Source of the DNA: Geotalea uraniireducens Rf4
GTDB taxonomy: Bacteria; Desulfobacterota; Desulfuromonadia; Geobacterales; Geobacteraceae
NCBI RefSeq assembly: GCF_000016745.1
Contig: NC_009483.1
Coordinates: 4,050,001-4,082,000, forward strand
Reading direction: 5' to 3'
Length of the DNA stretch: 32,000 nt
The notes beneath the pieces were generated by a model that searched no databases, had not been told where the DNA came from, and worked only from the letters and a program-made list of their open reading frames with translations. Position numbers and translations under genes: made by a program. This document shows positions 10,691 to 32,000 of the stretch, in pieces. Position 1 is the stretch's first letter. Every line of letters starts with the position of its first letter.

Positions 10691-10713
10691 GTTGGTTGTT
10701 TGCCTCAAGGATT

Positions 10714-10809: not shown

Positions 10810-10817
10810 AGGTTCTT

Positions 10818-12505: not shown

Positions 12506-12526
12506 TTCATCCCCCCTGACTGACCT

Positions 12527-13297: not shown

Positions 13298-13383
13298 TGA
13301 AAATCCTCCACAGTTCCGGGCCGTTTGTTTTGCCCTTTTATGGGCTTACCTACAAGAGAAGTATCGCACAAAATGTCCCGCTG

Positions 13384-13715
13384 TCACGTTGTATCAATCA
13401 GTGGAATGGAGAACCCATGGAAGCCGAGGCTGGGGTTCAGGTCGATGAAGTTGACCGGGCCGATCAGTCCCGCCTCGCTGAAATAGGCCCCTTCGGGAAA
13501 AGGGGGGTGAAGGTTTGCGGCACGTACTTGAGCGGGTCCCACAGCTCGGTGCGCCGGCTGGGGGCGGCTAGATATCGATAATCCTCGTCGGCGCAGTCAA
13601 GCCGGTAGGGAGCGGACTGGAAGAGAGTTCCCGTGTCGGCAGTTGCACCCTCCGGGCGGCTGAGAAGCAACGCGGCCAAAATGAAAAATAAGCTGACCCC
13701 TTGCAAAGTGGACAT
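13384..13715 (-). pseudogene. Truncated, frameshifted 5' remnant of an alginate-export-like outer-membrane protein gene
   Basis: 83-aa ORF with a GGAGGGGG SD and signal peptide MSTLQGVSLFFILAALLL. It then reads APYRLDCADEDYRYLAAPSRRTELWDPLKYVP, which resembles the conserved N-terminus of alginate-export family porins (normally about 450 aa). The reading frame breaks near 13464, and a shifted frame (GAYFSEAGLIGPVNF...) stops at 13384. Confidence 0.35.
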
Positions 13716-13896
13716 CGATACCCCCTCCGGAACTCAAGCCCCCTGTACAAACCCTGAAACCCGAACTCGACGAGCGCCTGCCGGTAGGCCGACTCACCGG
13801 CGGGAATGCCGTTTATCCGCTCCACCTTGATCTGTTTCCGGTGGTTGAACTCCAGGGAGACGAAGCGATACGTGCCGATATGCTGCAAGGCTGAAT

Positions 13897-15138
13897 TTAG
13901 GGTTGCTTCACCGTCACATCGACAAGGTTTTGCAACGTATCCGAACCGATCGTCTTTACTTCCATTTCGGCATCAGAGAAAACATATTCTGGTCCTTTTC
14001 CATTGAAATTCTCCCGCGAATAAAGGACATCAACCCCTTTCCCGACAAGATACTCCGCAAGCTTTATCCCTTTCCCTTTATCCATCGCCACAAAGGGGTT
14101 TTCCACTATTTCACGATAAAGGACTGCTCCGTCCGTAATTCTCTTATCCCACAGCGCGACAAACGGAGCGGCACCAAAGTGCGCTGATATTTCGCCGTCG
14201 CGGTTTGCGAGCGGCACGGCGAATCGCAGCCATTCTTTCCTTTCAGGCTCATAGTGGATGGTTACCTTTTCCACGAACGGAATCCGTTGCCGTATCTCTC
14301 GCTCCATCCTGTCGACTACCTCATGGGCCTCTTTCAGCCTCTTTAGAGAGAGCCGCACTTCAATGCCCACAAAGACGAACCTGCCGGAGTTGCGGGCCAC
14401 GATGGAAACGATTTCCGAAACTTCGTGAAAACCTCGGACGATCCCTGTCATTTCGTCCAGAGTGGCCTCACCGACGGAAGCGTCGAGGAGGCTCCTTATC
14501 GAATTCCGAGCGATTTCGTAACCGACCTTGAGGACCAGGAGCAAGACCACAAAGGCAGCGGCCCTGTCAAGAAAGGGGTAGGTAAGCCGTGCTCCGGCTA
14601 TCCCCGCCGTCACCACGGCCAATGGAGCCAGGTCGGTCCGCCAGTTTTCGGCGTCGGCCAGCAGAGAAGGGGAGTTGAGCGACCTTGCCCGCTCACGCTC
14701 GTAGCGGAAGAAAAAAAAGATCGGCAGTGTCATCAGGAAGAGGATGGCTATGGTTACATCGAGGTGTTTCAGCCCGCCTAAGGATGGATGAATTATAGTC
14801 TTTGCAATTTCGTAGGCGGAGATGAATATCAATCCTGCCGAAAGGAGCGCCGCAAGGTTTTCCGCCTTGTAGAGACCCCATGGGAATTTCGCCGATTTTA
14901 TCCCGGCAAGGCTTATCCCCCCAAGGACGAGGAGGCTTCCTACAACATCGCTTAATGAATGAACGGTTTCAGCAAGAAGCGCGGTACTGCTGGTGAGCAG
15001 ATAGAGGAAGTATTTTGCGATGGTCAGGGATAAATTGAGACCGAGGGAATACACAGCGAGTCTCTTTCCTTCATTTGCAGCGGCCGGTGCGCTGTTTACC
15101 GCTCCCCCGCCCGATAAGATTCCGAAAAATCCGATCAT
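13897..15138 (-). CDS. Cation diffusion facilitator (CDF) transporter fused to a C-terminal NifX/NifB-like (dinitrogenase FeMo-cofactor biosynthesis, PF02579-like) domain
   Basis: The CDF membrane domain has ETVHSLSDVVGS in TM2 and ADAENWRTD in TM5. The CDF cytoplasmic domain reads ...VSEIVSIVARNSGRFVFVGIEVRL...IHYEPE. About 110 extra residues follow (RFAVPLANRDGEISAHFGAAPFVALWD...GKGIKLAEYLVGKGVDVLYS...), matching the NifX/NifB-C fold signature. Confidence 0.75.
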   Translation of the reverse strand: MIGFFGILSGGGAVNSAPAAANEGKRLAVYSLGLNLSLTIAKYFLYLLTSSTALLAETVHSLSDVVGSLLVLGGISLAGIKSAKFPWGLYKAENLAALLSAGLIFISAYEIAKTIIHPSLGGLKHLDVTIAILFLMTLPIFFFFRYERERARSLNSPSLLADAENWRTDLAPLAVVTAGIAGARLTYPFLDRAAAFVVLLLVLKVGYEIARNSIRSLLDASVGEATLDEMTGIVRGFHEVSEIVSIVARNSGRFVFVGIEVRLSLKRLKEAHEVVDRMEREIRQRIPFVEKVTIHYEPERKEWLRFAVPLANRDGEISAHFGAAPFVALWDKRITDGAVLYREIVENPFVAMDKGKGIKLAEYLVGKGVDVLYSRENFNGKGPEYVFSDAEMEVKTIGSDTLQNLVDVTVKQP

Positions 15139-15205
15139 ATCTTATCTCAACCCCTCAGTAGCGATAACCGTGCCGACGCCCGCATAACGGCAACACAAAT
15201 CCGCC

Positions 15206-16717
15206 TCATGCACCCCGCCCTTTTCTGCCGAATTTCTCCCTATACATCCGCTCGTCGGCCAGCTTGAGGACTTCCCCAAGGCTTTCCCCCGTTTCTGCGG
15301 TTGCCGTGCCCAAGGAGAGGCTCAATCTGAAGACGCTGTTCGCACGGTTGACTCCTGCCTGGCAACTTTCGACCCTCTTGAGAATATCTTTCACCATAGC
15401 GCTGTCCGCGCCGGGCAGGAGGACCGCAAACTCGTCACCGCCTATGCGCGCCACCACATCATCGCTGCGAAAAGCCGCCAGCAGGACTTTAGCTGCCTCC
15501 TGAAGCAGTCGATCCCCCACCGCATGCCCATGGCGGTCGTTCACTTCTTTCAGCCCATCAACATCCGCCATAACGACGCTGATGGGGAATTCCCTTCCGC
15601 CGGCAAGCCGCCCGAGTTCCGCGTCGAAGTAAGCCCGGTTGTACAGGCCGGTCAGATTGTCGTGGGTGCTCAGGTAGCGGAGTTGCTCCTCCGCCTGCTT
15701 ACGTTCGGTTATATCGCGGTTGCTGCCGCTTATTCCCAAGAAAGTACCACTGTTGTCGTGGATCGGACGACAGATGTGGCTAATCCAGCGCATTTCCCCC
15801 TGTTTGGTAACAATGCGGAATTCGATTGGACTGGACGCCCCTCCCCGGTCTACCTCGCGGACATGAAGGCGCCATAGTTCATGATCATCGGAATGAATGA
15901 TAGCATCGCAGGTTTCCGGGAAATGAGACAGTTCCTCGACACTGAAGCCTGTAATATGTTCGGCTGCCGGAGAAATGTAGCGCATTTTCCCCTCCGGTGT
16001 CCGCCAGTAGAGCCATTCCGCCGAAGAATCGGCCAACCGCTGGAACATCCCGTTACTCTTCATCACTTCCTTTAACGTATCGTGCAGCGATTCCATGCCT
16101 CTGACCACGGCGAAGGCACCGATGCCCCGTCCCGCGCGAAAGGACTCGACCTCCCTCATCTCCTGCAGGGGCCTGAAGAGGGTCTGCACCCAATCCTGGC
16201 TGGGGAAGCCGCTTTCTTTCAGCATTTTCTCGACCTCTTCGGCGCGGTAGAAGGTGGCCTCGCGGTAGAAAGCGCTTTGGGACCGATTCTCCAGGTACTG
16301 CTGCCCCAAGGCGCTCCCCTTGTCGACTAACCCGATCACCAGACTCCCCTCAGGCTTGATGACCCGCCTTGCCTCGCGCAACATGGCGCGGGGATCATCC
16401 ACGAAGCAGATGGTAGTTACAATCAGGGCGTAATCAAAGCTTGCGGTAGCGAACGGGAGCCGCTCGGCGACGCCCCGCATGACACTAATGCCCCTTGCGC
16501 TGGCAAGTTTCAGCATGGCCGCCGAAGGATCGACACCTACCCGAACGCCAAGTGGCGCCGCGAAGCGCCCGCTTCCCACGCCGATCTCCAGGCCGAGCCC
16601 CTTCCACGGCAACAGCGCCCGTACTGCCAGCAGTTCGGAGCAGTAGGCGGCACCATGGGTGTCGTACCAGTTGTCGTAACGTTGGTGGTACGTGTTAAAT
16701 GGTTCGTTTCCGGACAT
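15206..16717 (-). CDS. Class I SAM-dependent methyltransferase domain - PAS - GGDEF diguanylate cyclase fusion protein
   Basis: From ATG 16717 (AAGGAA SD). LEIGVGSGRFAAPLG...VDPSAAML...LPFATASFDYALIVTTICFVDDP...IKPEGSLVIG is a Methyltransf_11-like domain. A PAS segment follows (WLYWRTPEGKMRYISPAAEHITGFS...). The GGDEF domain has an intact RIGGDEFAV and an RSDD (RxxD) I-site 5 residues upstream. Confidence 0.8.
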   Translation of the reverse strand: MSGNEPFNTYHQRYDNWYDTHGAAYCSELLAVRALLPWKGLGLEIGVGSGRFAAPLGVRVGVDPSAAMLKLASARGISVMRGVAERLPFATASFDYALIVTTICFVDDPRAMLREARRVIKPEGSLVIGLVDKGSALGQQYLENRSQSAFYREATFYRAEEVEKMLKESGFPSQDWVQTLFRPLQEMREVESFRAGRGIGAFAVVRGMESLHDTLKEVMKSNGMFQRLADSSAEWLYWRTPEGKMRYISPAAEHITGFSVEELSHFPETCDAIIHSDDHELWRLHVREVDRGGASSPIEFRIVTKQGEMRWISHICRPIHDNSGTFLGISGSNRDITERKQAEEQLRYLSTHDNLTGLYNRAYFDAELGRLAGGREFPISVVMADVDGLKEVNDRHGHAVGDRLLQEAAKVLLAAFRSDDVVARIGGDEFAVLLPGADSAMVKDILKRVESCQAGVNRANSVFRLSLSLGTATAETGESLGEVLKLADERMYREKFGRKGRGA

Positions 16718-16881
16718 CAGAGCAATTCCTTGATGGCAGCTACGAAGCGCGCATTGTCCTCTGGCAGGGCAGTGGTGATAAGCATGTAGCCCGGCCTCAA
16801 ATGTGGACCATACAAAAAAATGATGCGCTTCTGCAGCGGCGTATTGGGCAACCACTGCATGCACCTTGTCAGGTGACCCTC

Positions 16882-17622
16882 TCAATGATGAAACTTATAC
16901 GCCAGGTACAGCATGCAGAGAATACCGGCAGCAAAGCAGCTGAAGTGCAGCACCGCCCTGCCAATGTCGGGCTGTGCCTTGATCTCTGGCACAAGGTCTG
17001 AGGCGCCAATGTAGATGAAGTTGCCGGCGCCGAACAAGATCAAACCTGCGACTTCAAATCGGATTGACAACGCAAATGCCATGAGAGCGCCCAGTAGGAA
17101 TGTCAAACCGGAGAGGAAGTTCCAGGTCAGAGCCCGGCGGCGATCCCAACCACCATGGACAAGTATTCCGAAATCACCGAGCTCCTGTGGCACTTCATGA
17201 GCCGCTGCTGCAAGCCAGGCCATGACACCGGCACGTGGATCGACCAAAAAAGTGCTGGCAATGCCCAAACCACCCAGAAAGTTGTGAAGCGCATCCCCCA
17301 GGAGAATCAGATAGGTCATTGGACTCCTGCATTCCGCAGAGGCGCGTCTACAGTGGTGCCAGTGAAGAAATTGCTCAAGCCCGAGAAACGTGGCAAAGCC
17401 GCCTAGAAGCCACGCTCCGGCATTGATCGCGCCAAGTGCCGCAAAACCTGCGGGAATCATATGAAGGACTGCGCCGCCGAGCAAAGTGCCGGCAGCAAGA
17501 GAGACCAAGGGAAGAAGCAAACGATCCAAGGTGGCAGGTCGCAGCACAGTGGTGAGGCTTCCGACCAGCGCTATCGTGCTCATGAGCAAACCGCCCAGAA
17601 TGATCCATATGAGACTGTTCAT
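16882..17622 (-). CDS. ZIP family metal transporter (ZupT-like)
   Basis: Eight predicted TM segments from ATG 17622. There is a His/Cys-rich loop (HWHHCRRASAEC) and conserved motifs LGDALHNFLGGLGIA and AAAAHEVPQELGDFGIL. The track ORF extends to a GTG at 17748, which would add one extra hydrophobic segment, so the start is uncertain. Confidence 0.8.
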   Translation of the reverse strand: MNSLIWIILGGLLMSTIALVGSLTTVLRPATLDRLLLPLVSLAAGTLLGGAVLHMIPAGFAALGAINAGAWLLGGFATFLGLEQFLHWHHCRRASAECRSPMTYLILLGDALHNFLGGLGIASTFLVDPRAGVMAWLAAAAHEVPQELGDFGILVHGGWDRRRALTWNFLSGLTFLLGALMAFALSIRFEVAGLILFGAGNFIYIGASDLVPEIKAQPDIGRAVLHFSCFAAGILCMLYLAYKFHH

Positions 17623-17767
17623 ACGCGTCCCGGCCCAAATTATTGCGATAACTGCGATGGCGGCAATGAAAACGAGGAGGCTTCCCAAATTCCAGGGACA
17701 AACTCCTCTGCTCCTCTTGCCGCCCTTTATCCGGCGCTTTCTCTCCACTCAAGTAGCGGACGAAAAA

Positions 17768-18223
17768 CTATCTCCTCCAACCCGCCCAGACAGGAACGCC
17801 GTTGTCGTCGCGGAGTCTGAGCACTGAATCGCCCTTCTTCATCTCGGCCGCAATGATTGCCGGTTTACTGGCAACGGTGACCCTTGATCCCTTGACCTCA
17901 ACCTTGTCGCCCTTCTCTATTTTGACATCGAGCCGCTCGATGAACCAGGAAGGCCCCAGGTGGACGGAAATGGTCTCCTTGCCGGTCTTGAGCTGAAGAT
18001 GGATGCCGGCGCCCATACCTTTCATCGGAGTGACTTTGTCCACGGCAACTACCTCGCCGCTAACGGTTTCCACTGTGGCGGGGTTGTACATACGCTGATA
18101 GGCGCCCCCCATTCCCCAACCGCTACTGCCGCGCCACCCTTGCCACGGGGCGGCGAAAGTCGTCGAGACGAATGAAACCACGAGCATTGTTGCCAGAATA
18201 CTTGCGACGCTTTTCGCTTTCAT
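17768..18223 (-). CDS. Periplasmic protein of unknown function (Gly/Trp-rich N-terminus plus beta-rich domain)
   Basis: AAAGGAGG SD and signal peptide MKAKSVASILATMLVVSFVSTTFA. The body reads ...VSGEVVAVDKVTP..GMGAGIHLQLKTGKETISVHLGPSWF......I.KGDKVEVKGS......PAIIAAEMKKGD..LRLRDDNGVPVW. I recall similar proteins annotated as MamS/MamX-like or OB-fold-like, but that assignment is tentative. Confidence 0.6.
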   Translation of the reverse strand: MKAKSVASILATMLVVSFVSTTFAAPWQGWRGSSGWGMGGAYQRMYNPATVETVSGEVVAVDKVTPMKGMGAGIHLQLKTGKETISVHLGPSWFIERLDVKIEKGDKVEVKGSRVTVASKPAIIAAEMKKGDSVLRLRDDNGVPVWAGWRR

Positions 18224-18268
18224 GGAAACCTCCTTTGTCGTTATTCTACAGTATACCGCCGTTCTTTT

Positions 18269-19210
18269 TCATGCTTTCCCGAACCTTTGCAAGTAGTATT
18301 TCCGACCTTCGTATTCCGTTTCCGCCAGAAGTCCCGAATCGATCAGTTTCTTCACAACGGCCCAATCGCCACCCGCCTTTGCCAGCAGCTCCCGCACCGC
18401 CTCTTCTCTCATCGGATGCACCGCGGTAATGGCTAGTAGGTCCTCCGCTACATCTCCCATGCAGGCAAAGGCGTTCTCTTCGTAACCGGTCAGAAGCTCC
18501 ACCCGTTCGACCTTCCTGCGGAGGATCTGAAAGGCCCGGTTGACGGTCTCCTCGGAGGGAGGCTTCACCCATAGTTCCGCCGGAGGGCGGGTGGGGATGG
18601 CCAAATACGCCTTGGCGGGTTTCAGCGCCATGAGAAAATCGGCGAGCAGTTCGAGGTGCTCTTCAGCGTCATTGAGACCTTTTACCAGCATCGTTTCCGT
18701 CGCCAGCTCCCCTCCGTATCTTTTTGCAAAGCCGATCATGCCGGTGAGAAGGTCCATAAATTCCAGCAAAGGGCTGGGCCGATTAAGCTTGCGCCAGACA
18801 TCCTCTCTAACTGTGTCCACTTTCAACGAAACCCAATTCGCTTTGCGCAACGCCTCCGCCACGTCGCTGCGCCAGATGAGGGAGGCGTTGGTTATCACCG
18901 CGATCCTGATCCCGAGCGGCCGCAGGAGCTCGATTTCGCGCGCCAGGTTGATGTCCAGGGTCGGTTCGCCATCGGCAACGAAGGTCAGATAGTCTATCTG
19001 TTCGCCGTTTTCTCTCGCCACTCTCACCTTGTTTTCCACCTCCGCCGCGATCTCTTCAGGCCAGTAGAAGGCACGGCGGTCGACCTGCGTCTTAATGGTG
19101 CGTCCCACCTGGCAGTAGACGCAAGAATAGGTGCAAACCTTGGGCGTAATGTTGTTGATCCCCAGGCTGCGCCCCAGGCGCCTGGACGGCACCGGCCCGA
19201 ATACTATCAT
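18269..19210 (-). CDS. Radical SAM protein (unknown substrate) with C-terminal winged-helix-like extension
   Basis: MIVFGPVPSRRLGRSLGINNITPKVCTYSCVYCQVG contains the CxxxCxxC cluster motif. ...DGEPTL is a SAM-binding GGE-like motif. ATG 19210 follows a GGGGAGGTG SD, and the track's GTG start lies inside that SD. Confidence 0.8.
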   Translation of the reverse strand: MIVFGPVPSRRLGRSLGINNITPKVCTYSCVYCQVGRTIKTQVDRRAFYWPEEIAAEVENKVRVARENGEQIDYLTFVADGEPTLDINLAREIELLRPLGIRIAVITNASLIWRSDVAEALRKANWVSLKVDTVREDVWRKLNRPSPLLEFMDLLTGMIGFAKRYGGELATETMLVKGLNDAEEHLELLADFLMALKPAKAYLAIPTRPPAELWVKPPSEETVNRAFQILRRKVERVELLTGYEENAFACMGDVAEDLLAITAVHPMREEAVRELLAKAGGDWAVVKKLIDSGLLAETEYEGRKYYLQRFGKA

Positions 19211-19226
19211 GTGCGTCACCTCCCCA

Positions 19227-20108
19227 TTATCTCTCCTTCATCCTGCAATACTCGTTTTCGTAACCGATCTCGACCGTCGTATGCTCGAAATCCGCATTTT
19301 CGAGCAGTAATCTGACCCGGTTTCTTATCTTCAGGACGTCTTTCCTGGTTGCGTCCGCCTCGACCACCAGATGGGTCGTCAATACGTTGTGCTCGCCGTC
19401 CAGCGACCAGACGTGGGTATGATGGACGGATTTCACCTTGTCGATGGCTAGGAGTTTCTTCTCGATTTCGCCGGTATCGATCCCACCGGGTACGGCCTGA
19501 AGGAACAACTGCACTGTCTTTTTCAGGTTCCTCGACACGTTGAACAGGACATACGACGTTATAAGGATAGAGAGGATCGGGTCGAGGAGTGGCAGGTCCT
19601 TGAACAGCAGGACGGAACTCACCGACAAGACGGCCGCCCAGCCCAGCAAATCCCCCAGCAGATGCCAAGTGACGATCCGGGCGTTCAGCGTCCTCCCCCC
19701 CCTCACGCGCAGCAGCGCCAAGCCATTGACCGCGATCCCGACGACGGCAAGGAGCGCCATCCCCCCTGCATTGGGATGTTCCGGTCGCAGGAGCCTCGGC
19801 ACAGCCTCCGACAGGACCAGCAGGCTCCCCACCATCAGGACGAGGGCGGTCGCCAGTGCCCCCAGCAGCGAAAAGCGCCGGTATCCGTAGGAATACCTCC
19901 TGTCGCTCTCCTTTTCGGCATAGCCGGCCAGGTACCAGGCAAGCCCCAGCGACAGGCAGTCTCCCAAGTCATGGACGGCGTTCGAGATGATGGCTATACT
20001 GTTCGTCCAGAGTCCGCCGAACAGTTCCAGCAGGGTGAAGCAGAGGTTCAGCAGGAAGGCCAGTCGGAGACCCGCCGTAGCAGCACAGTAATGGCTAGAT
20101 CGGTCCAT
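19227..20108 (-). CDS. CDF family divalent-metal efflux transporter, CzcD/ZitB-like
   Basis: From ATG 20108. TM2 has NAVHDLGDCLS and TM5 has TWHLLGDLLGW (HxxxD/HxxxD site A, as in Zn/Co/Cd CDFs). The C-terminal domain reads ...VKSVHHTHVWSLDGEHNVLTTHLVV... Confidence 0.85.
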   Translation of the reverse strand: MDRSSHYCAATAGLRLAFLLNLCFTLLELFGGLWTNSIAIISNAVHDLGDCLSLGLAWYLAGYAEKESDRRYSYGYRRFSLLGALATALVLMVGSLLVLSEAVPRLLRPEHPNAGGMALLAVVGIAVNGLALLRVRGGRTLNARIVTWHLLGDLLGWAAVLSVSSVLLFKDLPLLDPILSILITSYVLFNVSRNLKKTVQLFLQAVPGGIDTGEIEKKLLAIDKVKSVHHTHVWSLDGEHNVLTTHLVVEADATRKDVLKIRNRVRLLLENADFEHTTVEIGYENEYCRMKER

Positions 20109-20210
20109 GTTCTCGCGTCCCCGAATATACAGGATGTTAAGAGCCGAAATAACGGAGCGTCCTCCGAATATCGTCAACGCCGAAGGAGGTGTCGAAGCAG
20201 CCCGTGCCGG

Positions 20211-21480: not shown

Positions 21481-21518
21481 ACCGCTGCGGAGACGTTTCG
21501 GAAAGGAAATGAGGCTAT

Positions 21519-21552
21519 TTCGGGGGCACAATGTATGGTGCCCCCGAATTTG
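21519..21552. terminator. Bidirectional intrinsic terminator between convergent genes
   Basis: TTCGGGGGCAC (21519-21529), an 8-nt loop, then GTGCCCCCGAA (21538-21548), giving an 11-bp GC-rich stem. It is flanked by TATTT upstream and TTTG downstream. Confidence 0.7.
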
Positions 21553-21583
21553 ACTGGAGCGGCATTCAGCGTCAAAAACCTCC

Positions 21584-21976
21584 TTATTTCATCTCTTTCA
21601 ACTGATTGATGTCTTTCTGCCCCTGTTCCTTCATGAGCTCCAGCTGTTTCTGCCGGTCTTCCTTCATCTTTTTCAGCTCTTCAGTTTTTTGCTCCTTTTT
21701 ACCCTTCATTTCCTTTACTTTCGCTGCCCCCTTCTGCGGTTTTGCCTTGATCTTCTCTTCCTGCTTTTTCTTCTTCTCTTTTATTTCGCTTTCCTTCTTT
21801 ATGGCCTTTTCCCTGGTATCGCTCTCTATCTTGAGCGCCTTTCCCTTCAGAATCTCTTCTTTCTTCAACAACTCCCCGGTCGGCGAGTACCCGGTTCCCT
21901 GCTCGGCAGCAAGGAGAGTTGTCGCAAATAGGCAGACAGCAAAAAAACTCGTAACAGCAATAGTTTTTCGTTTCAT
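21584..21976 (-). CDS. Secreted Lys/Glu-rich coiled-coil-like protein (unknown function)
   Basis: 130-aa ORF with GGAGGCAACGA SD context and signal peptide MKRKTIAVTSFFAVCLFATTLLAA. The rest is highly charged low-complexity K/E sequence. The antisense ORFs here are low-complexity artefacts. Confidence 0.6.
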   Translation of the reverse strand: MKRKTIAVTSFFAVCLFATTLLAAEQGTGYSPTGELLKKEEILKGKALKIESDTREKAIKKESEIKEKKKKQEEKIKAKPQKGAAKVKEMKGKKEQKTEELKKMKEDRQKQLELMKEQGQKDINQLKEMK

Positions 21977-22222
21977 TCGTTGCCTCCGTAAATTAATTTT
22001 TACTTACAATCATTGTACTAGACAATCAGCTGCATGCAAAAATGGCTGCCAAAAAGTTGCCGGGTTACCATGGGATCCGCACAGCATCCGATTTTCCCTA
22101 CGTCCCCGCAAACCGATTTTTTAATTATTAGATTGCAATTTACTGATATTACAACAAAAAAATGATCCTATAAATCAAGCACATACCGTGCGAGAAAATT
22201 CGTGGCATGATTTTTTGATCGC

Positions 22223-22250
22223 TTGACTCGGCAGGATGTCTGATTATAGT
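22223..22250 (+). promoter_or_regulatory. Candidate sigma70-type promoter of the RND cluster
   Basis: TTGACT (22223-22228), a 16-nt spacer, then TATAGT (22245-22250), in an AT-rich spacer. It implies a leader of about 285 nt before ATG 22541. Sequence match only. Confidence 0.4.
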
Positions 22251-22381
22251 TAATTTATAATTGGTGGCCTGAATCTTTGATATGTTTTCATAACCATCTA
22301 AGTTCTTTGAGAAATTATCCATGATGCAATGCCGTATTTTTGATGCAATAACATGGGACTTTTGAAAATCCCCGAAAAAAT

Positions 22382-22446
22382 CTCTCCCCCTTGACGGGGA
22401 AGGGTTGGGGTGCAGGTGAAAGTTCCGGTCAAGGGGGGGGAAAGAG
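22382..22446. repeat. REP-like long hairpin in the RND leader
   Basis: CTCTCCCCCTTGAC (22382-22395) is complementary to GTCAAGGGGGGGGAAAGAG (22428-22446). The loop carries GGGTTGGGGT, as in the 20662-20767 element. Confidence 0.65.
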
Positions 22447-22540
22447 TCTTGCAAAGGGCTCCTGTTACTGAACTTACCGTCATGGAATCAGGATTAATTG
22501 GCGCATCATAACGACCTGACAAGAAGGGAGGGCCCCGGCA

Positions 22541-25500
22541 ATGATACGTTGGATCATTGGATCGAGCTTGAAGCTTCGACTCGTGGTGGCTGCACTCGCG
22601 GTGTTGCTGATGGTTTTCGGCTTCTCTCAGCTTGGAGAGCTTGAGGAGCTACCGGTGGATGTCTTGCCCGAATTCTCACGGCCGCATGTGGAGGTTCAAA
22701 CCGAGGCCCTGGGTCTGTCTGCCGAGGAAATTGAAGCGTTGATAACCACTCCCATGGAGGCGGATTTGCTCAACGGGGTGTCGTGGGTGAAGGAGATCCG
22801 CTCCGAGTCAATTCCCGGCCTGTCGTCCATCGTTCTCATCTTCGAGAAAGGCACCGACGTCATGCGTGCCCGGCAAATGGTGCAGGAGCGGCTGATCGGG
22901 GTGTATGTGTTGCCGAACGTGGCGACGCCGCCTACCATGATCAATCCCCTATCCTCGGTCAGCCGGTGCATGGAGATCGGGCTGACCTCGAAAACAATGT
23001 CCCTGATTGATATGTCGGTGCTCGCCCGTTGGACGATCAAGCCCCGCTTGATGGGCGTACCCGGCGTGGCGAATGTGTCGATTTGGGGCCAGCGGGAGCG
23101 GCAGTTGCAGGTGCAGGTCGATCCGAAAAGGTTGCGGGATGAAGGCGTTTCGCTGATGCAAGTCATCAGAACCACAGGCAATGCGCTGTGGGTGTCCCCC
23201 TTGACCTTTCTGGAAGCATCGACACCCGGCACCGGGGGGTGGATCGATACCCCCAATCAAAGGCTCGGAGTCCGACACGTCCTGCCCATTAAAACGGCGG
23301 AGGACCTGGGCCGGGTGACCATCGAGGACGCGCCATCGAAGGACCTGCATGATGTAGCCACAGTGGTGGAAGACCATCAACCGCTCATCGGTGATGCCAT
23401 CGTTGACGACGCCCCGGCGCTCATGTTGGTCGTTGAGAAATTTCCATGGGCCAATACGCTGGAAGTGACTCAGGAGGTGGAAGAGGCGCTGGCGGCCTTA
23501 CGGCCCGGACTATCCGGGTTGGAGATGAACTCCTCCCTCTTTCGACCGGCGACCTTCCTTGAGTTGGCGGTCAGGAATCTCTCCACGGCTCTGCTCATCG
23601 GTGCCGTTCTCATAATTGTGGCGCTCTTTGCCTTTTTTTTCAACTGGCGTACCGCGCTGATCAGCATCGTGGCACTCCTGGTGTCTGTGTTCGCAGCCGG
23701 GACCGTGCTCTACGCATGCTGGGCAAAATTCAACATGCTGGTTATCGCCGGGCTGATAGTAACCCTCGGCGTCATCATCGACGACGCGATCGTCGACACG
23801 GAAAATATCGTACGGCGTCTCCGACAGGCCCGAGAAGAGAACAACGGCAAATCAACTGCGGCCATCATTTTCGAGGCTGCGGTCGAGATGCGCAGCCCCA
23901 TCATCTACGCGACGCTGATCGCAGTGCTGGCGTTGATACCGCTTTTGTTCCTGGAAGGCGTGTCCGGCGCATTCTGGAAGCCCATCGCCATCTCTTACAT
24001 GCTGGCGATGCTCGCCTCCACGGCGGTTGCCATGACCGTCACGCCGGCGTTGAGTCTGCTGTTCTTGCGTAAAGACTCGCTCCAGAGGGGCGATTCTCCG
24101 GTCATGGCGATGCTGCGCCGTATCCACAGCGCCATTTTCGGGTGGGCCGGCCGCACTCCGCGCCTGGCATTCGTCGCTGTTTGCGCCGTCCTCGTTGCCG
24201 GACTCGTCTCCATACCATTCCTCCGTCAGGAATCACTGCTGCCGGACTTCAAGGAAACGGATCTCGTGATTCGGTGGGAAGGTGGTTCCGGCGCATCTCT
24301 TCCGGCAATGAGCCGGATCACGACTCTGGCCAGCCGCGAACTGCGCTCCATTCCAGGGATCCGCAACGTCAGTGCCCATGAGGGGCGCGCCATCATGTCG
24401 GATAAGCGCGCGGGAATCAACTCCGGTGAACTTTGGATCAGCATCGATCCTGCCGCCGACTATGACGCGACAGTGGCCTCGGTAAAAGAAGCGGTCGCAG
24501 GCTACCCCGGTCTGTCTCCTGAAGTACTGACCTACCTGGAAGCGAAAGTCAGAGAGGAGCTGCCGGGGACGGGCGAATCCTTCATTGTGCGCGTTTACGG
24601 CGAGGACATGAAGATGATCCGCTCCAAGGCGGAAGAGATACAGAAAGTCCTGGCGGGGATCAACGGAATCGTTGATGCAAAAGTGCAGTATCCAAAGGAA
24701 GAGCCGACTCTGGAAATCGAAGTAGATCTTGAGAAAGCGAAACGCTACGGCCTCAAACCCGGCGATGTGCGACGCGCGGCGACCACATTGGCGTCAGGCC
24801 TTTTAGTCGGCAACCTTTTCGAGGAACAGAAGGTATTCGAAGTGGTGGTGCTGGGCACGCCCGAAACCCGCCGCAGCGTGAACAGTATTAAAGATCTTCT
24901 GATAGACACGCCCGGGGGGGGGCACGTGCGTTTGCAGGAAGTGGCCAACGTGCGCATTACGCCGGCTGCCACCGTCATCAATCGAGATGCCGTTGCGCGC
25001 CGCATGGACGTAACCGCCAGCGTGCATGGACGCAATCCCGCCACTGTCGCGGCCGACGTCAACCGCGGCATTCAGCAGGTCAGCTTCCCGCTTGAGTACC
25101 GCGCGGAACTGTTAGGGGAGTATGCGGAGCGCCTCGCTGCCCGAGAGCGTGTGTTCGCCTTTGCAATTGCCGCTGCCATCGGGATTTTCCTGCTCCTGCA
25201 GGCCTTCTTCCTGAGCTGGCGCCTGGCGACAGTCGTCTTCCTGACCCTGCCGATGGCCCTGATGGGGGGTGTGCTGGCAGCGTTCCTGAGCGGCGGCCTT
25301 ATCTCGCTCGGTTCGATCATCGGCTTTTTCGCGGTATTGGGAATTGCCGTGCGCAACTGTATTTCGCTGGTCAGCCGCTATCGCCATCTCGATCGCCATG
25401 AAGACGAACCCGTCAGCGCCGACCTGGTCCAGCGCGGCACCAGCGAACGGTCCGGCACGATCTTGATGGCTGCGGCAACAACAGCATTGGCGTTCTCCCC

Positions 25501-25714
25501 CTTGGCACTATTCGGCAATATTGCCGGCCTCGAAATTGTGCAGCCGATGGCCATCGTCGTTCTGGGCGGCCTGGTCACGACGACATTTTTCACCCTGGCC
25601 GGTGTGCCCGCCATCTACTTGTTGTTTGGCACCAAGCGCGAACCCGATCTTGAGCTGGAAGTGCGTGAGGCCATCCCGAACGGTCAAGGGGTGGAGGAAG
25701 TCGTGCCGAAGTAG
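22541..25714 (+). CDS. RND efflux transporter permease, HME (CusA/CzcA)-like, paralog 1
   Basis: 1057 aa with AGGGAGG SD. The N-terminus MIRWIIGSSLKLRLVV... is CusA-like. It has 12-TM plus two large periplasmic loops. The TM4 motif is LGVIIDDAIVDTENIVRRL. Confidence 0.9.
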   Translation: MIRWIIGSSLKLRLVVAALAVLLMVFGFSQLGELEELPVDVLPEFSRPHVEVQTEALGLSAEEIEALITTPMEADLLNGVSWVKEIRSESIPGLSSIVLIFEKGTDVMRARQMVQERLIGVYVLPNVATPPTMINPLSSVSRCMEIGLTSKTMSLIDMSVLARWTIKPRLMGVPGVANVSIWGQRERQLQVQVDPKRLRDEGVSLMQVIRTTGNALWVSPLTFLEASTPGTGGWIDTPNQRLGVRHVLPIKTAEDLGRVTIEDAPSKDLHDVATVVEDHQPLIGDAIVDDAPALMLVVEKFPWANTLEVTQEVEEALAALRPGLSGLEMNSSLFRPATFLELAVRNLSTALLIGAVLIIVALFAFFFNWRTALISIVALLVSVFAAGTVLYACWAKFNMLVIAGLIVTLGVIIDDAIVDTENIVRRLRQAREENNGKSTAAIIFEAAVEMRSPIIYATLIAVLALIPLLFLEGVSGAFWKPIAISYMLAMLASTAVAMTVTPALSLLFLRKDSLQRGDSPVMAMLRRIHSAIFGWAGRTPRLAFVAVCAVLVAGLVSIPFLRQESLLPDFKETDLVIRWEGGSGASLPAMSRITTLASRELRSIPGIRNVSAHEGRAIMSDKRAGINSGELWISIDPAADYDATVASVKEAVAGYPGLSPEVLTYLEAKVREELPGTGESFIVRVYGEDMKMIRSKAEEIQKVLAGINGIVDAKVQYPKEEPTLEIEVDLEKAKRYGLKPGDVRRAATTLASGLLVGNLFEEQKVFEVVVLGTPETRRSVNSIKDLLIDTPGGGHVRLQEVANVRITPAATVINRDAVARRMDVTASVHGRNPATVAADVNRGIQQVSFPLEYRAELLGEYAERLAARERVFAFAIAAAIGIFLLLQAFFLSWRLATVVFLTLPMALMGGVLAAFLSGGLISLGSIIGFFAVLGIAVRNCISLVSRYRHLDRHEDEPVSADLVQRGTSERSGTILMAAATTALAFSPLALFGNIAGLEIVQPMAIVVLGGLVTTTFFTLAGVPAIYLLFGTKREPDLELEVREAIPNGQGVEEVVPK

Positions 25715-25747
25715 GGAACGATATGAGACAAGTAACGGGAGGCAACA

Positions 25748-26197
25748 ATGCAGAAGCACATGAATCGTATGACGGCTTTAGCACTGGTCATCGCAGTTAT
25801 GCTTCTTGCGGCGTGCAAGAAAACCCATGGCACGCAAGACACCGAGCATCCGGCTGAGGTCAAGAAGGTCGAGGGGACGGAACTGAGCCGTGTGACGTTG
25901 AGCGAGAAGGCCATGCAACGGATTGACCTCAAAACCGACCTGGTCCGTGAACAACGGGTGTCGCGCTCGGCCTCACCGCAAAAGGTCGTCCCCTATTCTT
26001 CGCTGATATACGACCCGCAAGGCCAATGCTGGATATACACCTGTCCTCAACCTCGAACCTTCGTGAGGCATAAAGTGGAAGTCGATTACATCGAAGGCGA
26101 TCTCGCTGTTCTGAAGGACGGCCCACCTATCGGCACGGTCATCGCGTCCGTAGGAGTGGCGGAGTTGTATGGCACCGAGTTCAAGGTTGGACATTGA
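25748..26197 (+). CDS. Small lipoprotein resembling a minimal membrane-fusion (periplasmic adaptor) protein that lacks the lipoyl and alpha-hairpin domains
   Basis: GGGAGG SD and lipobox LLAAC (signal MQKHMNRMTALALVIAVMLLAAC). VTLSEKAMQRIDLKTDLV resembles the MFP N-terminal beta-strand. VVPYSSLIYDPQGQCWIYT...FVRHKVEVDYIEGDLAVLKDGPPIGTVIASVGVAELYG resembles the MFP C-terminal beta-barrel region. Total length is only 149 aa. Confidence 0.55.
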   Translation: MQKHMNRMTALALVIAVMLLAACKKTHGTQDTEHPAEVKKVEGTELSRVTLSEKAMQRIDLKTDLVREQRVSRSASPQKVVPYSSLIYDPQGQCWIYTCPQPRTFVRHKVEVDYIEGDLAVLKDGPPIGTVIASVGVAELYGTEFKVGH

Positions 26198-26266
26198 CCA
26201 AGGATCCAAGGATCTGTCAGGAAATAAGTTTGTTTCGTGACAGGCCCTAAAGAGGGGTTTACAGCC

Positions 26267-29419
<3,153 letters not shown>

Positions 29420-29444
29420 ACTATAAATAGGAGGAGAAGATACA

Positions 29445-30380
29445 ATGAAATCAAGATGCCGCATCCCGTCGCCATTTTACGTGATACTGGTATCCTTCGC
29501 TTGTTGCATCGGGCTGTTGAGTGGCTGCACCAAGGCTCAGGAAAGCAAGACCGAAACCAAGGCCGAAACCAGGACCGACAGCCAGCCTTCCGAGAAAAAG
29601 TTCGAGGACTTCGTCCCCAACAACTTTTCCGATCCAACCAGGATCGACAACGAATGGCTGCCCATGAAACCGGGAACGCGATGGGTTTATGAGGGCATCA
29701 CCATCGAGGATGACGGCAAGGCCGTTCCTCATCGCGTAGTGACGAACGTCACCGATCTGACCAAGGTGATCGGCGGCATCCGCTCGGTGGTTTCCTATGA
29801 TCTGGACTACAGCGATGGCGAACTGGTGGAGGCGGAGCTCGCTCTTTTCGCTCAGGATAACGCCGGTAACGTTTGGCGCATAGGCGAGTACCCCGAGGAA
29901 TACGAAGACGGAAAGCTCATCGCGGCAAAGCCCTGGATCCATGGCCTTGAGAATGCGAGAGCCGGGATAATGATGAAGGCCAAGCCGCAGGTCGGGACTC
30001 CGAGTTATGCCCAGGGATGGGGACCCGCAGTCGATTGGACGGACCGCGGAAAGGTGGATCAGATGGGCCAGGAGACCCGTGTCCCAACGGGCAATTACAA
30101 GGACGTTCTGGTTATTGCCGAGACCAGCCAATCGGAACCGGATGCCGAACAGCTCAAGTACTACGCACGCGGTGTGGGGAATGTACGCGTGGGCTGGAGA
30201 GGGGCGGGAGAAAAAACAAAAGAGACACTGGAACTGGTCAAGTTTGAGCAGCTCGGTCCGAAGGCCCTGGCCGAGGTTCGTCAGAAGGCGATGAAACTGG
30301 AGAAGAGCGCCTACAAGAACAGCGGGAAGCTGTTCTCTCTGACGCCGCCGGCGGAGCCGATGCCCGGCAGAGCTCAATAA
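29445..30380 (+). CDS. Lipoprotein of unknown function (paralog A of the following gene)
   Basis: AGGAGGAG SD and lipobox LLSGC. ...IDNEWLPMKPGTRWVYEG...VTNVTDLTKVIGGIRSVVS...LFAQDNAGNVW..GEY...YEDGK...GIMM...VG..Y.QG...YYARGVGNVRV. I recognise no named family. Confidence 0.7.
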   Translation: MKSRCRIPSPFYVILVSFACCIGLLSGCTKAQESKTETKAETRTDSQPSEKKFEDFVPNNFSDPTRIDNEWLPMKPGTRWVYEGITIEDDGKAVPHRVVTNVTDLTKVIGGIRSVVSYDLDYSDGELVEAELALFAQDNAGNVWRIGEYPEEYEDGKLIAAKPWIHGLENARAGIMMKAKPQVGTPSYAQGWGPAVDWTDRGKVDQMGQETRVPTGNYKDVLVIAETSQSEPDAEQLKYYARGVGNVRVGWRGAGEKTKETLELVKFEQLGPKALAEVRQKAMKLEKSAYKNSGKLFSLTPPAEPMPGRAQ

Positions 30381-30459
30381 GTGAATTGTGAATCCGTGAG
30401 GGCTCGGGGCTCGATCAGGTTGGCTTTTGATCAGAAAAAAAGAGAAAAGAGATGACAAA

Positions 30460-31173
30460 ATGATTAAAAAAATGCGTCCGTATTTTCTCATCATGGCTTT
30501 AGTTGCCGCTCTGTCTTGTGTCGCAAGCAACCATGCCTTGGCGGAAGAGTGGCTGGAAGATTTCAATTTAGCCGCCCGAAAACTGACTACTACCGGGAAA
30601 TCAAAATATTTCGTTCTTGTTCCTGGATTCCAGATTGTTCTGGAATCCCCGACGGAAAAGATCACGATAACGGTGCTTGACGAAACAAAGGAGATAAACG
30701 GCATCACCACGAGGGTAGTTGAAGAAAGGGAACTGAAAAACGGAAAGTTGCACGAAATTTCGAGAAACTTCTTTGCCCTGGACCCGAAAACCGGTGATGT
30801 TTTTTATTTCGGTGAAGATGTGGATGACTATAAGGAGGGGAAAATCACGAGTCATTCAGGGACGTGGAAGGCGTATGAAAATGGAAACAAACCCGGTCTG
30901 ATCATGCCCGGAAATGCTGAAGTCGGGAAAAAGTATTACCAGGAGATCGCGCCGGGCGTAGCAATGGATCGGGCTGAAGTCGTCAGTGTGTCCGAGACGA
31001 TGAAAACTCCGGCAGGAACATTCGATAATTGTTTAAAAATCCGGGAATCTTCAAAAGATAAACCGGCACCGGCAGAATACAAAACTTATGCACCCGGCAT
31101 TGGGTTGATACAAAAAGAAGATGCGAAGTTGATTCGCCATGGATACCTGAAGGGAAAGAGTGCTCCGAAGTAA
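30460..31173 (+). CDS. Secreted protein of unknown function (paralog B)
   Basis: Signal peptide MIKKMRPYFLIMALVAALSCVASNHALA. It aligns block-wise with 29445..30380 (KYFVLVPG..., VLDETKEINGITTRVV, FFALDPKTGDVFYFGED...YKEGK, GLIMP, VGKKYYQE, TPAGTFDNCLKI, YAPGIGLIQ). An alternative start is ATG 30472. Confidence 0.7.
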   Translation: MIKKMRPYFLIMALVAALSCVASNHALAEEWLEDFNLAARKLTTTGKSKYFVLVPGFQIVLESPTEKITITVLDETKEINGITTRVVEERELKNGKLHEISRNFFALDPKTGDVFYFGEDVDDYKEGKITSHSGTWKAYENGNKPGLIMPGNAEVGKKYYQEIAPGVAMDRAEVVSVSETMKTPAGTFDNCLKIRESSKDKPAPAEYKTYAPGIGLIQKEDAKLIRHGYLKGKSAPK

Positions 31174-31201
31174 CATATAAAAACAGAGGAGACAAGATAT
31201 C

Positions 31202-31531
31202 ATGGAATCGAGCAACAGTCGTTTCAGGAAGGGTGCATGGTCTATCGCGGTGGTGATCGTTTCGGTTTTCACCTGGTTCGGCTCGGCCGGTGACCTTTTG
31301 GCGGCGGCCGGGAACAAACCGCGGTTGGAGCAGCCGGTTGCAAAGATCTCAGGGGAAAAGGCGACCGAGATCGCGCTGAAGGAAGTGCCCGGCAAGGTTA
31401 CCTCCGTTGTCATCGAAAGAAAACGCGGCAAGAACGTGTACGTTGTCGAGATCATCGAGAAGAGCAGCGGAGGGGAAGTCGATGTTCTGGTTGATATGAA
31501 GACGGGGAAAGTGTTGGGAACGGAAAGGTAA
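31202..31531 (+). CDS. PepSY domain-containing membrane-anchored protein
   Basis: GAGGAG SD and N-terminal TM AWSIAVVIVSVFTWFG. ISGEKATEIALKEVPGKVTSVVIERKRGKNVYVVEIIE.SSGGEVDVLVDMKTGKVLG is the PepSY (PF03413) pattern. Confidence 0.8.
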   Translation: MESSNSRFRKGAWSIAVVIVSVFTWFGSAGDLLAAAGNKPRLEQPVAKISGEKATEIALKEVPGKVTSVVIERKRGKNVYVVEIIEKSSGGEVDVLVDMKTGKVLGTER

Positions 31532-31592
31532 TGATTAGCACCCCACGCCGCCTCGACGGCGCTTTATCGGGGAAAAACCTCGGTGAAACGCG

Positions 31593-31638
31593 CTTCGACT
31601 CCGCTCAGCGCACGAACGTTCCCTGAGCGGAGTCGAAG
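31593..31638. repeat. 16-bp-stem GC-rich hairpin (REP-like or atypical terminator) downstream of the PepSY gene
   Basis: CTTCGACTCCGCTCAG (31593-31608), a 14-nt loop, then CTGAGCGGAGTCGAAG (31623-31638). No T-tract follows. Confidence 0.5.
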
Positions 31639-31691
31639 GGAACTGAACTTACTCAGAAGTCTGAATTATTTGTACCAAGGAGCTTGCTACC

Positions 31692-32000
31692 ATGAAAAAT
31701 ATGATTCAGGCAATTGGGACGATCGTTGTGATCATCCTCTTTGCCGGCAACGTTTGCGCCCAGGCCCAGGGCAGTCCGGGTACCGAGGAGTTCGGCCTGA
31801 CCCCAAAGCAGCTTGTCCAGTCCATCGAGAAGGTTGAAGCGCTGATCTCCAGGTGCATGCGTGACCATGGGTTTCAGTACGTTCCCGTTGACTATATCAC
31901 GGTGCGCAATGGCATGGGCGCCGACAAAAACATGCCCGGGCTCAGCGAGGAGGAATTCATCAGCAAGTACGGATTCGGCGTTTCGACAATGTACACGGGT
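31692..32000 (+). CDS. Secreted protein of unknown function (N-terminal 103 codons; runs off the right edge)
   Basis: Absent from the track because it has no stop. AAGGAG SD lies 9 nt upstream of ATG 31692. My translation is MKNMIQAIGTIVVIILFAGNVCAQAQGSPGTEEFGLTPKQLVQSIEKVEALISRCMRDHGFQYVPVDY..., which includes a signal peptide. Confidence 0.6.
   Translation, partial: MKNMIQAIGTIVVIILFAGNVCAQAQGSPGTEEFGLTPKQLVQSIEKVEALISRCMRDHGFQYVPVDYITVRNGMGADKNMPGLSEEEFISKYGFGVSTMYTG

Follow-up and report, generated by a model that had tools for sequence, protein, structure and literature searches.

Tandem RND permeases separated by an adaptor reduced to its membrane-proximal domain, and with no outer-membrane duct linked, in Geotalea uraniireducens Rf4 and more than 12 phyla

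The stretch of DNA analysed here, called the window, is 32,000 nucleotides of contig NC_009483.1 of Geotalea uraniireducens Rf4 (assembly GCF_000016745.1, positions 4,050,001 to 4,082,000 of the forward strand). Toward its end lies a cluster of six genes in which two permeases from the RND (resistance-nodulation-division) superfamily, RND1 and RND2, flank the gene of a 149-residue lipoprotein, here called the mini-adaptor, and are followed by a 311-residue lipoprotein (Lpp311), its 237-residue exported paralog, and a PepSY-domain protein (Table 1). The six open reading frames (ORFs) are co-directional on the + strand with spacers of 25–79 nucleotides, and the promoter candidate in front of them is the highest-scoring sigma-70 match within positions 21500–32000, in agreement with the tandem array and promoter that the initial annotation, made from the sequence alone, had described. 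Exact protein matches exist for the mini-adaptor (Gura_3467, ABQ27623.1), RND2 (ABQ27624.1), and Lpp311 (ABQ27625.1), and these records carry just the labels hypothetical protein, lipoprotein, and generic RND permease. A literature search on adaptors consisting of a membrane-proximal (MP) domain, on tandem permeases of the heavy-metal efflux (HME) type, and on Gura_3465-3470 found no description of this system, and reviews that mention the sediment transcriptome of G. uraniireducens hold no information on these genes.

Table 1. Genes and sequence signals of the RND cluster, in coordinates of the window
Feature	Position	Strand	Evidence or note
Sigma-70-like promoter candidate, TTGACT-16 nt-TATAGT	22223-22250	+	10/12 consensus matches
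Leader, 290 nt	22251-22540	+	between promoter candidate and RND1
RND1 ("U-type" permease, 1057 aa)	22541-25714	+	ACR_tran E=8e-179
Mini-adaptor, 149-aa lipoprotein (lipobox LLAAC)	25748-26197	+	MP-domain homology, AF2/Foldseek
RND2 ("D-type" permease, 1050 aa; alternative GTG start 26237)	26267-29419	+	ACR_tran E=5e-215
Lpp311, 311-aa lipoprotein (lipobox LLSGC)	29445-30380	+	AF2 model, Foldseek
237-aa exported paralog of Lpp311 (ORF from TTG 30427)	30460-31173	+	BLASTP 28% identity, E=3e-18
PepSY-domain protein (109 aa)	31202-31531	+	PF03413 E=1e-16
Stem-loop, perfect 16-bp stem, without U-run	31593-31638	+	161-nt PepSY-next gene spacer: -62.8 kcal/mol, z=-4.67
291-aa exported protein, start portion	31693-32000	+	runs past window end

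The mini-adaptor has no sequence match in Pfam, NCBIfam, or the PDB, and no Pfam HlyD, Biotin_lipoyl, or barrel domain matches it; a PDB match to PsaH at E=0.5 was spurious. Its AlphaFold2 (AF2) model (pLDDT 84) consists of a single small β domain, and the top Foldseek matches are almost exclusively membrane fusion proteins (MFPs): CusB, AcrA, TMexC, SilB, ZneB, MexA, and TriA. The model aligns with CusB structure 3ne5 at a Foldseek E-value of 3e-3 (chain B, rmsd 1.8 Å over 62 columns) and with the SilB NMR construct 5a4g, which comprises the N-terminal metal site and the MP domain, at a TM-score of 0.45 (rmsd 3.1 Å over 82 columns). The closest full-length relatives are the MFPs of plasmid-borne TolC–MFP–RND operons of Methylomonas koyamae (pFW12EY) and Hymenobacter spp., which form the sister clade of the present system and share with the mini-adaptor even a C-terminal AELFGTEFG motif. 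In phmmer searches, the 405-residue Hymenobacter and 314-residue Methylomonas MFPs match the mini-adaptors of nearly all of 80 related loci with E=1e-10 to 1e-21, and the Hymenobacter protein itself exceeds the cut-offs of HlyD_3 and HlyD_D23 in Pfam. (The scan that yielded the 80 loci used one genome per species; all are metagenome-assembled genomes, their taxonomy is taken from record titles, and their ORFs were called by a simple longest-ORF procedure, which is crude.) It is these phmmer matches that settle the mini-adaptor as an MFP homolog.

The alignment with the sister-clade MFPs shows how the protein was shortened. The N-terminal MP strand VTLSEKAMQRIDLKT is joined directly to the C-terminal part of the MP domain, VVPYSSLIYD...VAELYGTEFKVGH, and the β-barrel, lipoyl domain, and α-hairpin are cleanly excised. 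The mini-adaptor is thereby homologous to the HlyD superfamily and lacks its multidomain architecture of MP domain, β-barrel, lipoyl domain, and α-hairpin. That the 149-residue lipoprotein is a miniature adaptor, as the initial annotation proposed, is confirmed by phmmer, alignment, and Foldseek, in the specific form of an MFP reduced to the two halves of its MP domain. Less reduced "midi" adaptors of 240–330 residues, which occupy the same slot in some loci (L051, L061, L076, and L080, with 275–330 residues), consist of barrel and MP domain and have neither lipoyl domain nor hairpin.

When 1.84 billion representative proteins were searched with a profile, 2220 representatives of the adaptor family at 50% identity were returned, 1720 of them at E<=1e-10. 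Lengths are bimodal among the best 150, with 80 proteins of at most 200 residues and 66 of 201–340. The mini form by itself comprises 630 clusters at 90% identity, nearly all of about 148 residues and with 27 invariant columns; the relatives among those listed are 60–81% identical to the query, and the lipobox is retained, in monoderm members too. Such conservation effectively refutes the notion of a decaying operon, in which the 149-residue ORF would be a non-functional remnant of a truncated MFP gene. The mini-adaptor is indeed what an internal deletion in an MFP gene left over, and still the chance that it is a dead remnant seems negligible with 630 clusters, 2220 representatives, and a retained lipobox on the other side. 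Two other assignments were rejected. The labels NosL, "streptogramin lyase," and "outer membrane receptor" that JGI records attach to some homologs (e.g. P0002 and P0012) have no Pfam or NCBIfam support. A metallochaperone role based on E33-H34 and the C-terminal His is likewise unsupported: H34 is lost in distant members, and of 150 representatives 64 end in His, 53 in Lys, and 33 in some other residue.

The modular nature of adaptors, and the loss of domains from them, is known from BesA of Borrelia and EmrA of Aquifex (PMC3807786 and PMC4158417; reviewed in PMC4446572). These cases differ from the mini-adaptor in what is lost: BesA lacks the hairpin alone and still works with the TolC homolog BesC, and EmrA is without an MP domain. 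Hairpin-less adaptors have been expected in Gram-positive bacteria, yet this is not what genome surveys found (PMC4446572). The architectures reviewed there do not include an adaptor with just an MP domain, and no description of one was found in the literature searched. The mycobacterial MmpS5-MmpL5 system also places a small membrane-anchored "adaptor" beside a TolC-independent RND permease (PMC12346298, PMC12122801, and PMC12501195). It is unlike the present system in that its permease is of the HAE2/MMPL family and its MmpS is no homolog of MFPs, and no MmpS structure is among the 50 best Foldseek matches listed for the mini-adaptor.

Both permeases are full-length RND proteins with 12 transmembrane (TM) helices. 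They score 597 bits (RND1) and 717 bits (RND2) against ACR_tran (PF00873; cut-off 28), with profile positions 4–1020 spanned, and are 50.5% identical to each other across 1032 aligned columns, which bears out the clear paralogy noted at the outset. The top-scoring NCBIfam model for both is TIGR00914 (CusA/CzcA), at 447 and 585 bits for RND1 and RND2, under its curated cut-off of 701.45. The models of the HAE-1 class (hydrophobe/amphiphile efflux 1) are missed as well, NF033617 at 385 and 489 bits (cut-off 1250) and TIGR00915 at 233 and 335 bits (cut-off 940), and HpnN matches at merely E=2e-3. The nearest solved structures are ZneA (279 bits for RND1 and 374 bits for RND2), then CusA, and then the HAE-1 pumps; the alignment of RND2 with ZneA spans the proteins end to end, and the docking domains are full-length.

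The initial annotation took the TM4 motif of the two permeases to be distinctive, and in this it was mistaken. The motif reads IIDDAIVDTEN in RND1 and has the general form DDAIxDxEN in the pair. Its DD pair and its E-N are present also in AcrB, MdtB, and MdtC, which lack the additional Asp that precedes the Glu by two residues. The full DDAIIDxEN, extra Asp included, occurs in the sister-clade permeases, whose operons are ordinary arrangements of two-component system, TolC, MFP, and RND genes, and the motif was rejected as a hallmark of an atypical system. ZneA reads DFGIIVDGAIVVMEN at TM4, and RND2 differs there and lacks D-F-G...D-G-A...V-E-N, which we take to be the defining TM4 signature of divalent-metal HME pumps. 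In TM10, both RND1 (R938) and RND2 (R943) have Arg where AcrB has K940.

In a neighbour-joining tree, the upstream, RND1-type (U) and downstream, RND2-type (D) permeases form two clades that agree with gene position across phyla. The single-permease proteins of Methylomonas and Hymenobacter are sister to U and D together, CusA lies outside, and MdtB, MdtC, and AcrB lie farther out. The tree shows a single duplication of the permease gene, at the root of the family. The pairwise distances of U and D between loci correlate (r=0.81), and U evolves faster, with a mean identity of 53% within U against 64% within D. The sister-clade permeases are 53–55% identical to RND2 and resemble it in a VVDDAIIDVEN TM4, an AARN TM10, and the same H/F/E residues in the periplasmic cleft; their operons are unlike the present cluster in having a two-component system, a TolC-family gene, an MFP of 314–405 residues, a single permease, and no 11-residue loop extension (see below).

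The arrangement recalls MdtABC and MuxABC, the pumps of the MdtB2C type, which likewise encode two paralogous permeases, about 50% identical, in one operon and go back to one ancient duplication. MdtBC is a member of HAE-1 clade B (PMC10872679), has a full-length MFP, and uses TolC. The pair described here branches with CusA and the sister clade and is HME-related, its adaptor gene stands between the permeases, and no duct is linked. A survey that covered 920 Gram-negative proteomes and 6205 RND permeases detected tandem permease pairs in the MdtBC clade alone (PMC10872679); the pair in G. uraniireducens and its relatives would therefore be an independent case.

The RND1–small lipoprotein–RND2 order, whose conservation the initial annotation had proposed to survey, recurs far beyond the Geobacter lineage. 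The trio is conserved in about 50 of the 56 loci with enough flanking sequence. In 46 of these 56, the adaptor gene has an RND gene at most 900 bp away on each side, and most exceptions have an ABC-2 transporter between RND1 and adaptor or overlapping or broken gene calls. The 80 loci belong to more than 12 phyla, which include Desulfobacterota (labelled Geobacter), Ignavibacteriota, Bacteroidota, Acidobacteriota, Nitrospirota, KSB1, Planctomycetota, Rokubacteria/Methylomirabilota, Gemmatimonadota, Spirochaetota, and Proteobacteria; 50 loci are from diderm phyla and 30 from Chloroflexota and Actinomycetota, which are monoderm. In several KSB1-like, Gemmatimonadota, and Vicinamibacterales loci (L006, L007, L009, L010, L015, and L023; e.g. 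L023 5940-9455 and 14394-15098), an ABC ATPase and an ABC-2 permease (PF12679, NosY-type) accompany the RND genes, sometimes between RND1 and the mini-adaptor, and a second mini-adaptor paralog of 200–325 residues, 33–36% identical, lies nearby.

Neither a full-length MFP nor an outer-membrane factor (OMF) is linked to the permeases, as had been proposed for the cluster in the window and as now also holds for the 80 loci. No TolC-family OMF was found among the 868 ORFs of these loci, either with a hidden Markov model (HMM) built from three sequences or with phmmer searches using three OMFs. MFP-like matches in the loci are limited to mini-adaptors, midi adaptors, and mini-adaptor paralogs. No HlyD-type or OEP/TolC-type Pfam domain was found in the ORFs tested across the window, and no OMF in the approximately 5 kb downstream of its end. 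The two marks of a tripartite system, a linked OMF and an adaptor hairpin, are both absent. With 30 of 80 loci from monoderm phyla, obligate trans-envelope efflux via a TolC duct is argued against, and the suggestion of a machine that does not act across the whole envelope is supported by these loci together with the missing OMF.

It could still be that the system is tripartite in diderms, recruiting a distal full-length MFP and TolC, with the 149-residue protein as a modulator in the manner of AcrZ or YbjP. G. uraniireducens is a diderm, its permeases retain full-length docking domains, and Enterobacteria are known to employ OMFs and MFPs promiscuously (PMC6975555). The sister clade, however, has MFP and TolC genes adjacent and none of the 80 loci does, and 30 of the loci are from phyla without an outer membrane. 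Moreover, the mini-adaptor sits in the ancestral MFP slot and is homologous to MFPs, which speaks for replacement of the MFP and not for an addition to it. We regard a tripartite arrangement of this kind as quite improbable.

The loci of diderm phyla offer another route. Of the 50 diderm loci, 21 have a gene for Porin_5 or Porin_O_P and 17 have a DUF5916 gene, and neither occurs in the 30 monoderm loci (examples of porin and DUF5916 loci are L012 13675-15012, L034 13577-14806, and L028 2709-5045). The porin gene directly follows RND2 in many loci. This distribution suggests that passage across the outer membrane, where such a membrane exists, proceeds by diffusion through a dedicated porin instead of a TolC duct.

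A canonical MFP with an OMF immediately past the end of the window would have spoken against an absence of these components. Downstream on the same strand follow the 291-residue exported protein, a 556-residue PG_binding_1/MFP-like protein, and a fused MacB-type ABC transporter, and after these comes a convergent 516-residue gene without Pfam domains. The 556-residue protein starts about 700 bp past the window end and combines PG_binding_1, a coiled coil, and a barrel/MP-like C-terminus. It looks like the adaptor of the adjoining MacB-type transporter, and the module (L088 10491-15169) like a separate exporter; it is found alongside the RND core in 7 of 80 loci of very different phyla (L003, L016, L019, L026, L051, L059, and L063), once in opposite orientation. 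The neighbourhood thus contains an MFP-like gene, contrary to the claim in its strictest form, and no OMF, as that claim supposed; a canonical MFP/OMF pair just past the window was rejected.

Residues of the periplasmic cleft distinguish the two permeases. Among 61 D-clade proteins, E577, E673, and E760 (RND2 numbering) are present in all 61, E627 in 60, H583, E635, and E677 in 59, and R674 and E1005 in 58. The Met triad with which CusA binds monovalent metals is not present in either permease: the positions of CusA M573, M623, and M672 are H583, F633, and E677 in RND2 and R, S, and E in RND1. ZneA D602, E610, D654, and D658 align with RND2 E627, E635, E673, and E677, which are conserved in 59–61 of the 61 D-clade proteins, and ZneA E136 corresponds to R139. 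These four ZneA residues are, we assume, proximal-site metal ligands; their numbering alone was checked on the alignment. The U clade is variable at the cleft positions, with K, Q, E, or R as the equivalent of E627. The conserved Glu/His cluster favours a cation substrate over the lipid option, as far as residue patterns can indicate, and the two CDF genes and one ZIP gene upstream in the window were counted as context for the same assignment. Of the initial proposal of envelope-lipid or metal handling, the metal half is thereby favoured and the lipid half disfavoured.

The TM proton relay is complete in the D clade, with D419, D420, E426, N427, and R943 in 61 of 61 proteins, R975 and T982 in 60, and D424 in 58. 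In the U clade it is mostly kept (D414 in 52, D415 in 51, and R938 in 47 of 56) and partly degenerate: at the Glu position of "EN," 32 of the 56 sequences have E and 16 have D, and 36 of the 56 retain the Asn. The U clade also has 26 invariant columns of its own. RND2 is the conserved and probably the catalytic subunit. Both clades carry an 11-residue extension, which the sister clade lacks, where the alignment places the inter-protomer loop of AcrB. The extension exists in two paralog-specific conserved versions, and its conservation is strongest in U. A paralog-specific loop is the pattern expected of non-equivalent protomers in a mixed trimer and may be read as a hint of one, and a heterotrimer of RND1 and RND2 is plausible on these grounds.

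Alternatively, the operon could encode two independent homotrimeric pumps served by one mini-adaptor, RND2 exporting a cation and RND1 a different substrate. The U-type is evidently under purifying selection, given its own invariant columns and mostly kept relay, and the systematic difference of its cleft residues from those of the D-type fits another specificity. Against separate pumps stand the strict gene order with a single adaptor gene in about 50 of 56 loci, the co-evolution of U and D, the paralog-specific versions of the inter-protomer loop, and the partial degeneration of the U-type relay; MdtBC, the precedent known for RND paralogs in tandem, forms a heterotrimer (PMC10872679). Two homotrimers are in our view the less probable arrangement, although among the alternatives to a heteromeric pump they are the one to be taken most seriously.

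The proteins encoded downstream of RND2 differ in how firmly they belong to the system. In 34 of 80 loci the fetched flanks include relatives of Lpp311 or of the 237-residue protein, as a rule immediately 5' of RND1 or 3' of RND2. The PepSY protein clearly passes its profile (PF03413, 61.3 bits; cut-off 24) and is near the core in 4 of 80 loci; it is a lineage-specific accessory outside the conserved core. Of the accessory partner set put forward initially, the Lpp311 family stays and the PepSY protein drops out. The Lpp311 family comprises 4087 homolog clusters, none with a Pfam domain, and 18 of the 120 best Lpp311 homologs (P0121-P0134 and others) are tandem two-domain forms of 386–538 residues. 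The Pfam model DUF3108_like matches the 237-residue paralog alone and is sub-threshold (21.7 bits; cut-off 27). The AF2 model of Lpp311 (pLDDT 82) is an open β-barrel followed by a C-terminal helix, and Foldseek relates it to 3fzx (E=3e-6, TM-score 0.36-0.49), 4fvs, DUF1849, LolA3, VtrC, and EPDR1 folds. Lpp311 is, going by this model, likely an open β-barrel similar to YmcC, DUF3108, and LolA. Asp, Glu, His, and Trp make up most of its conserved residues.

Three gene fusions connect this fold to the adaptor. In P0320 (L089 912-2165), an Lpp311 domain separates the two MP-domain halves and sits exactly at the usual place of barrel, lipoyl domain, and hairpin. P0257 (L090 3305-4807), encoded between two RND genes, is a midi adaptor with a C-terminal Lpp311 domain, and P0265 has a more complex arrangement of the two. 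Taken as Rosetta-stone evidence, these fusions make the Lpp311 β-barrel protein a candidate for a component that works at the adaptor.

The same fold raises a different possibility, a hydrophobic or envelope-lipid substrate handled in the manner of HpnN or MmpL, with the LolA/YmcC-like lipoproteins as periplasmic carriers. The Lpp311 model resembles YmcC-like, DUF1849, LolA3, bile-salt-binding VtrC, and EPDR1 folds, the adaptor–Lpp311 fusions point to a hand-off at the pump, and TM4 has the DD pair of HAE type. On the other hand, the conserved Glu/His cluster of the D clade occupies the metal-site positions of CusA and ZneA, the nearest solved relatives of the permeases are these two proteins and not HpnN or MmpL, Lpp311 has conserved mostly acidic residues, His, or Trp instead of an apolar lining, and the recurrent neighbours in diderms are porins and not lipid machinery. 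A lipid substrate therefore appears distinctly unlikely for the family. In the sister branch, the operon on a Hymenobacter radiodurans plasmid (L087 839-13400) lies among genes for GT39, an NAD-dependent epimerase, undecaprenyl-diphosphate phosphatase, and a protein with the N-terminal domain of lipid-A-disaccharide synthase, which is an envelope-modification setting; it hints that non-metal substrates are possible for that branch.

The remaining features of the window can be described briefly. The leader in front of RND1 is unusually long and contains C-rich and G-rich runs (e.g. 22376-22442). It gave no Rfam match at the gathering threshold, and a riboswitch or leader RNA in these 290 nucleotides was rejected with zero Rfam matches even at E<=1. 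The stem-loop after the PepSY gene is possibly a transcript-end, processing, or attenuation element. Upstream of the cluster, on the - strand, the genes at 11720-20177 include a metal-homeostasis group: a CDF transporter (19227-20177), a radical-SAM protein (18269-19219), a ZIP transporter (16882-17748), a methyltransferase-PAS-GGDEF protein (15206-16885), and a CDF transporter fused to Nitro_FeMo-Co, a dinitrogenase cofactor-binding domain (13897-15138). Farther upstream, at 9086-13297 and also on the - strand, is a non-homologous end-joining set with two Ku genes (11720-12505 and 12527-13297) and a split LigD, whose phosphoesterase and ligase (9086-10708) are encoded apart from its Prim-Pol (10818-11723).

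An adaptor cut to its MP domain, or to barrel and MP domain, standing between two permease copies with no duct linked, is shown for bacteria of both envelope types. Our interpretation, held with middling confidence, is that the cluster encodes a duct-independent cation exporter, likely heteromeric, which arose from an HME-related tripartite ancestor resembling the metal pumps. RND2 would be the working proton-driven subunit, binding a cation, most likely a divalent transition metal, in its Glu/His-lined cleft, and RND1 would co-assemble with it as a diverged, non-equivalent protomer. The lipid-anchored MP-domain protein would dock on the porter domain and, by analogy with the MP domains of AcrA, MacA, and CusB, could keep their activator or assembly role, yet it could not reach an outer-membrane duct, and the substrate would therefore be released to the outer periplasm in diderms and to the wall zone in monoderms. 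From there it may be handed to the acidic YmcC/LolA-like β-barrel lipoprotein, and in many diderm relatives it may exit through the porin encoded beside RND2.

Several observations weigh against this interpretation. Both permeases score below the curated HME cut-off and have the HAE-type DD pair in TM4, the permease tree is without bootstrap support, and two separate homotrimers would produce identical synteny. The Foldseek E-values of the mini-adaptor are weak taken alone, 3e-3 being the best. The predicted substrate is read solely from conserved residues and neighbouring genes, no metal-sensing regulator or riboswitch was found, and the fold of Lpp311 is typical of proteins that bind hydrophobic ligands. 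Each adaptor–Lpp311 fusion is known from one short metagenomic contig. Finally, diderm hosts could recruit a full-length MFP and OMF encoded elsewhere.

A more far-reaching version, which we put forward tentatively and with less confidence, is that the family constitutes a widespread and so far undescribed class of duct-independent RND systems in monoderms and diderms, built from an obligate heterotrimer of catalytic and scaffold permeases, an MP-only activator, and a barrel protein that receives the cation. The YmcC/LolA-like protein would in that case dock where the barrel, lipoyl domain, and hairpin of the adaptor once sat.

Like the HME pumps ZneCBA and CzcCBA of Cupriavidus and CusCFBA of Escherichia coli, the system has permeases whose nearest solved relatives are HME proteins, acidic residues in RND2 at ZneA positions, and an MP domain that superposes on CusB, SilB, and ZneB. 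Unlike them, it falls short of TIGR00914, has DDAIxDxEN in TM4 and His/Phe/Glu in place of the CusA Met triad, uses an adaptor without barrel, lipoyl domain, or hairpin, comprises two permease paralogs, and has no linked OMF. Its paired permeases would be a second, independent origin of this arrangement outside the MdtBC clade, and in Actinomycetota and Chloroflexota it provides examples of full-size HME-like RND pumps whose partner derives from an MFP. The families of the 149- and 311-residue lipoproteins, for which Pfam and NCBIfam have no model, could be defined.

Adaptors in tripartite pumps have two tasks, forming the bridge to the duct in the outer membrane and activating or assembling the transporter in the inner one, and experiments can hardly tell these roles apart. 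With the MP domain alone apparently kept in thousands of clusters and more than 12 phyla, the mini-adaptors offer a natural minimal system for the activation role. If the more far-reaching version is true, the activator function of MFPs would have been isolated in nature from their bridge function. The cluster is present in a cultured and sequenced organism, G. uraniireducens Rf4, an isolate from a uranium-bioremediation site, and metal-resistance phenotypes are thus directly testable.

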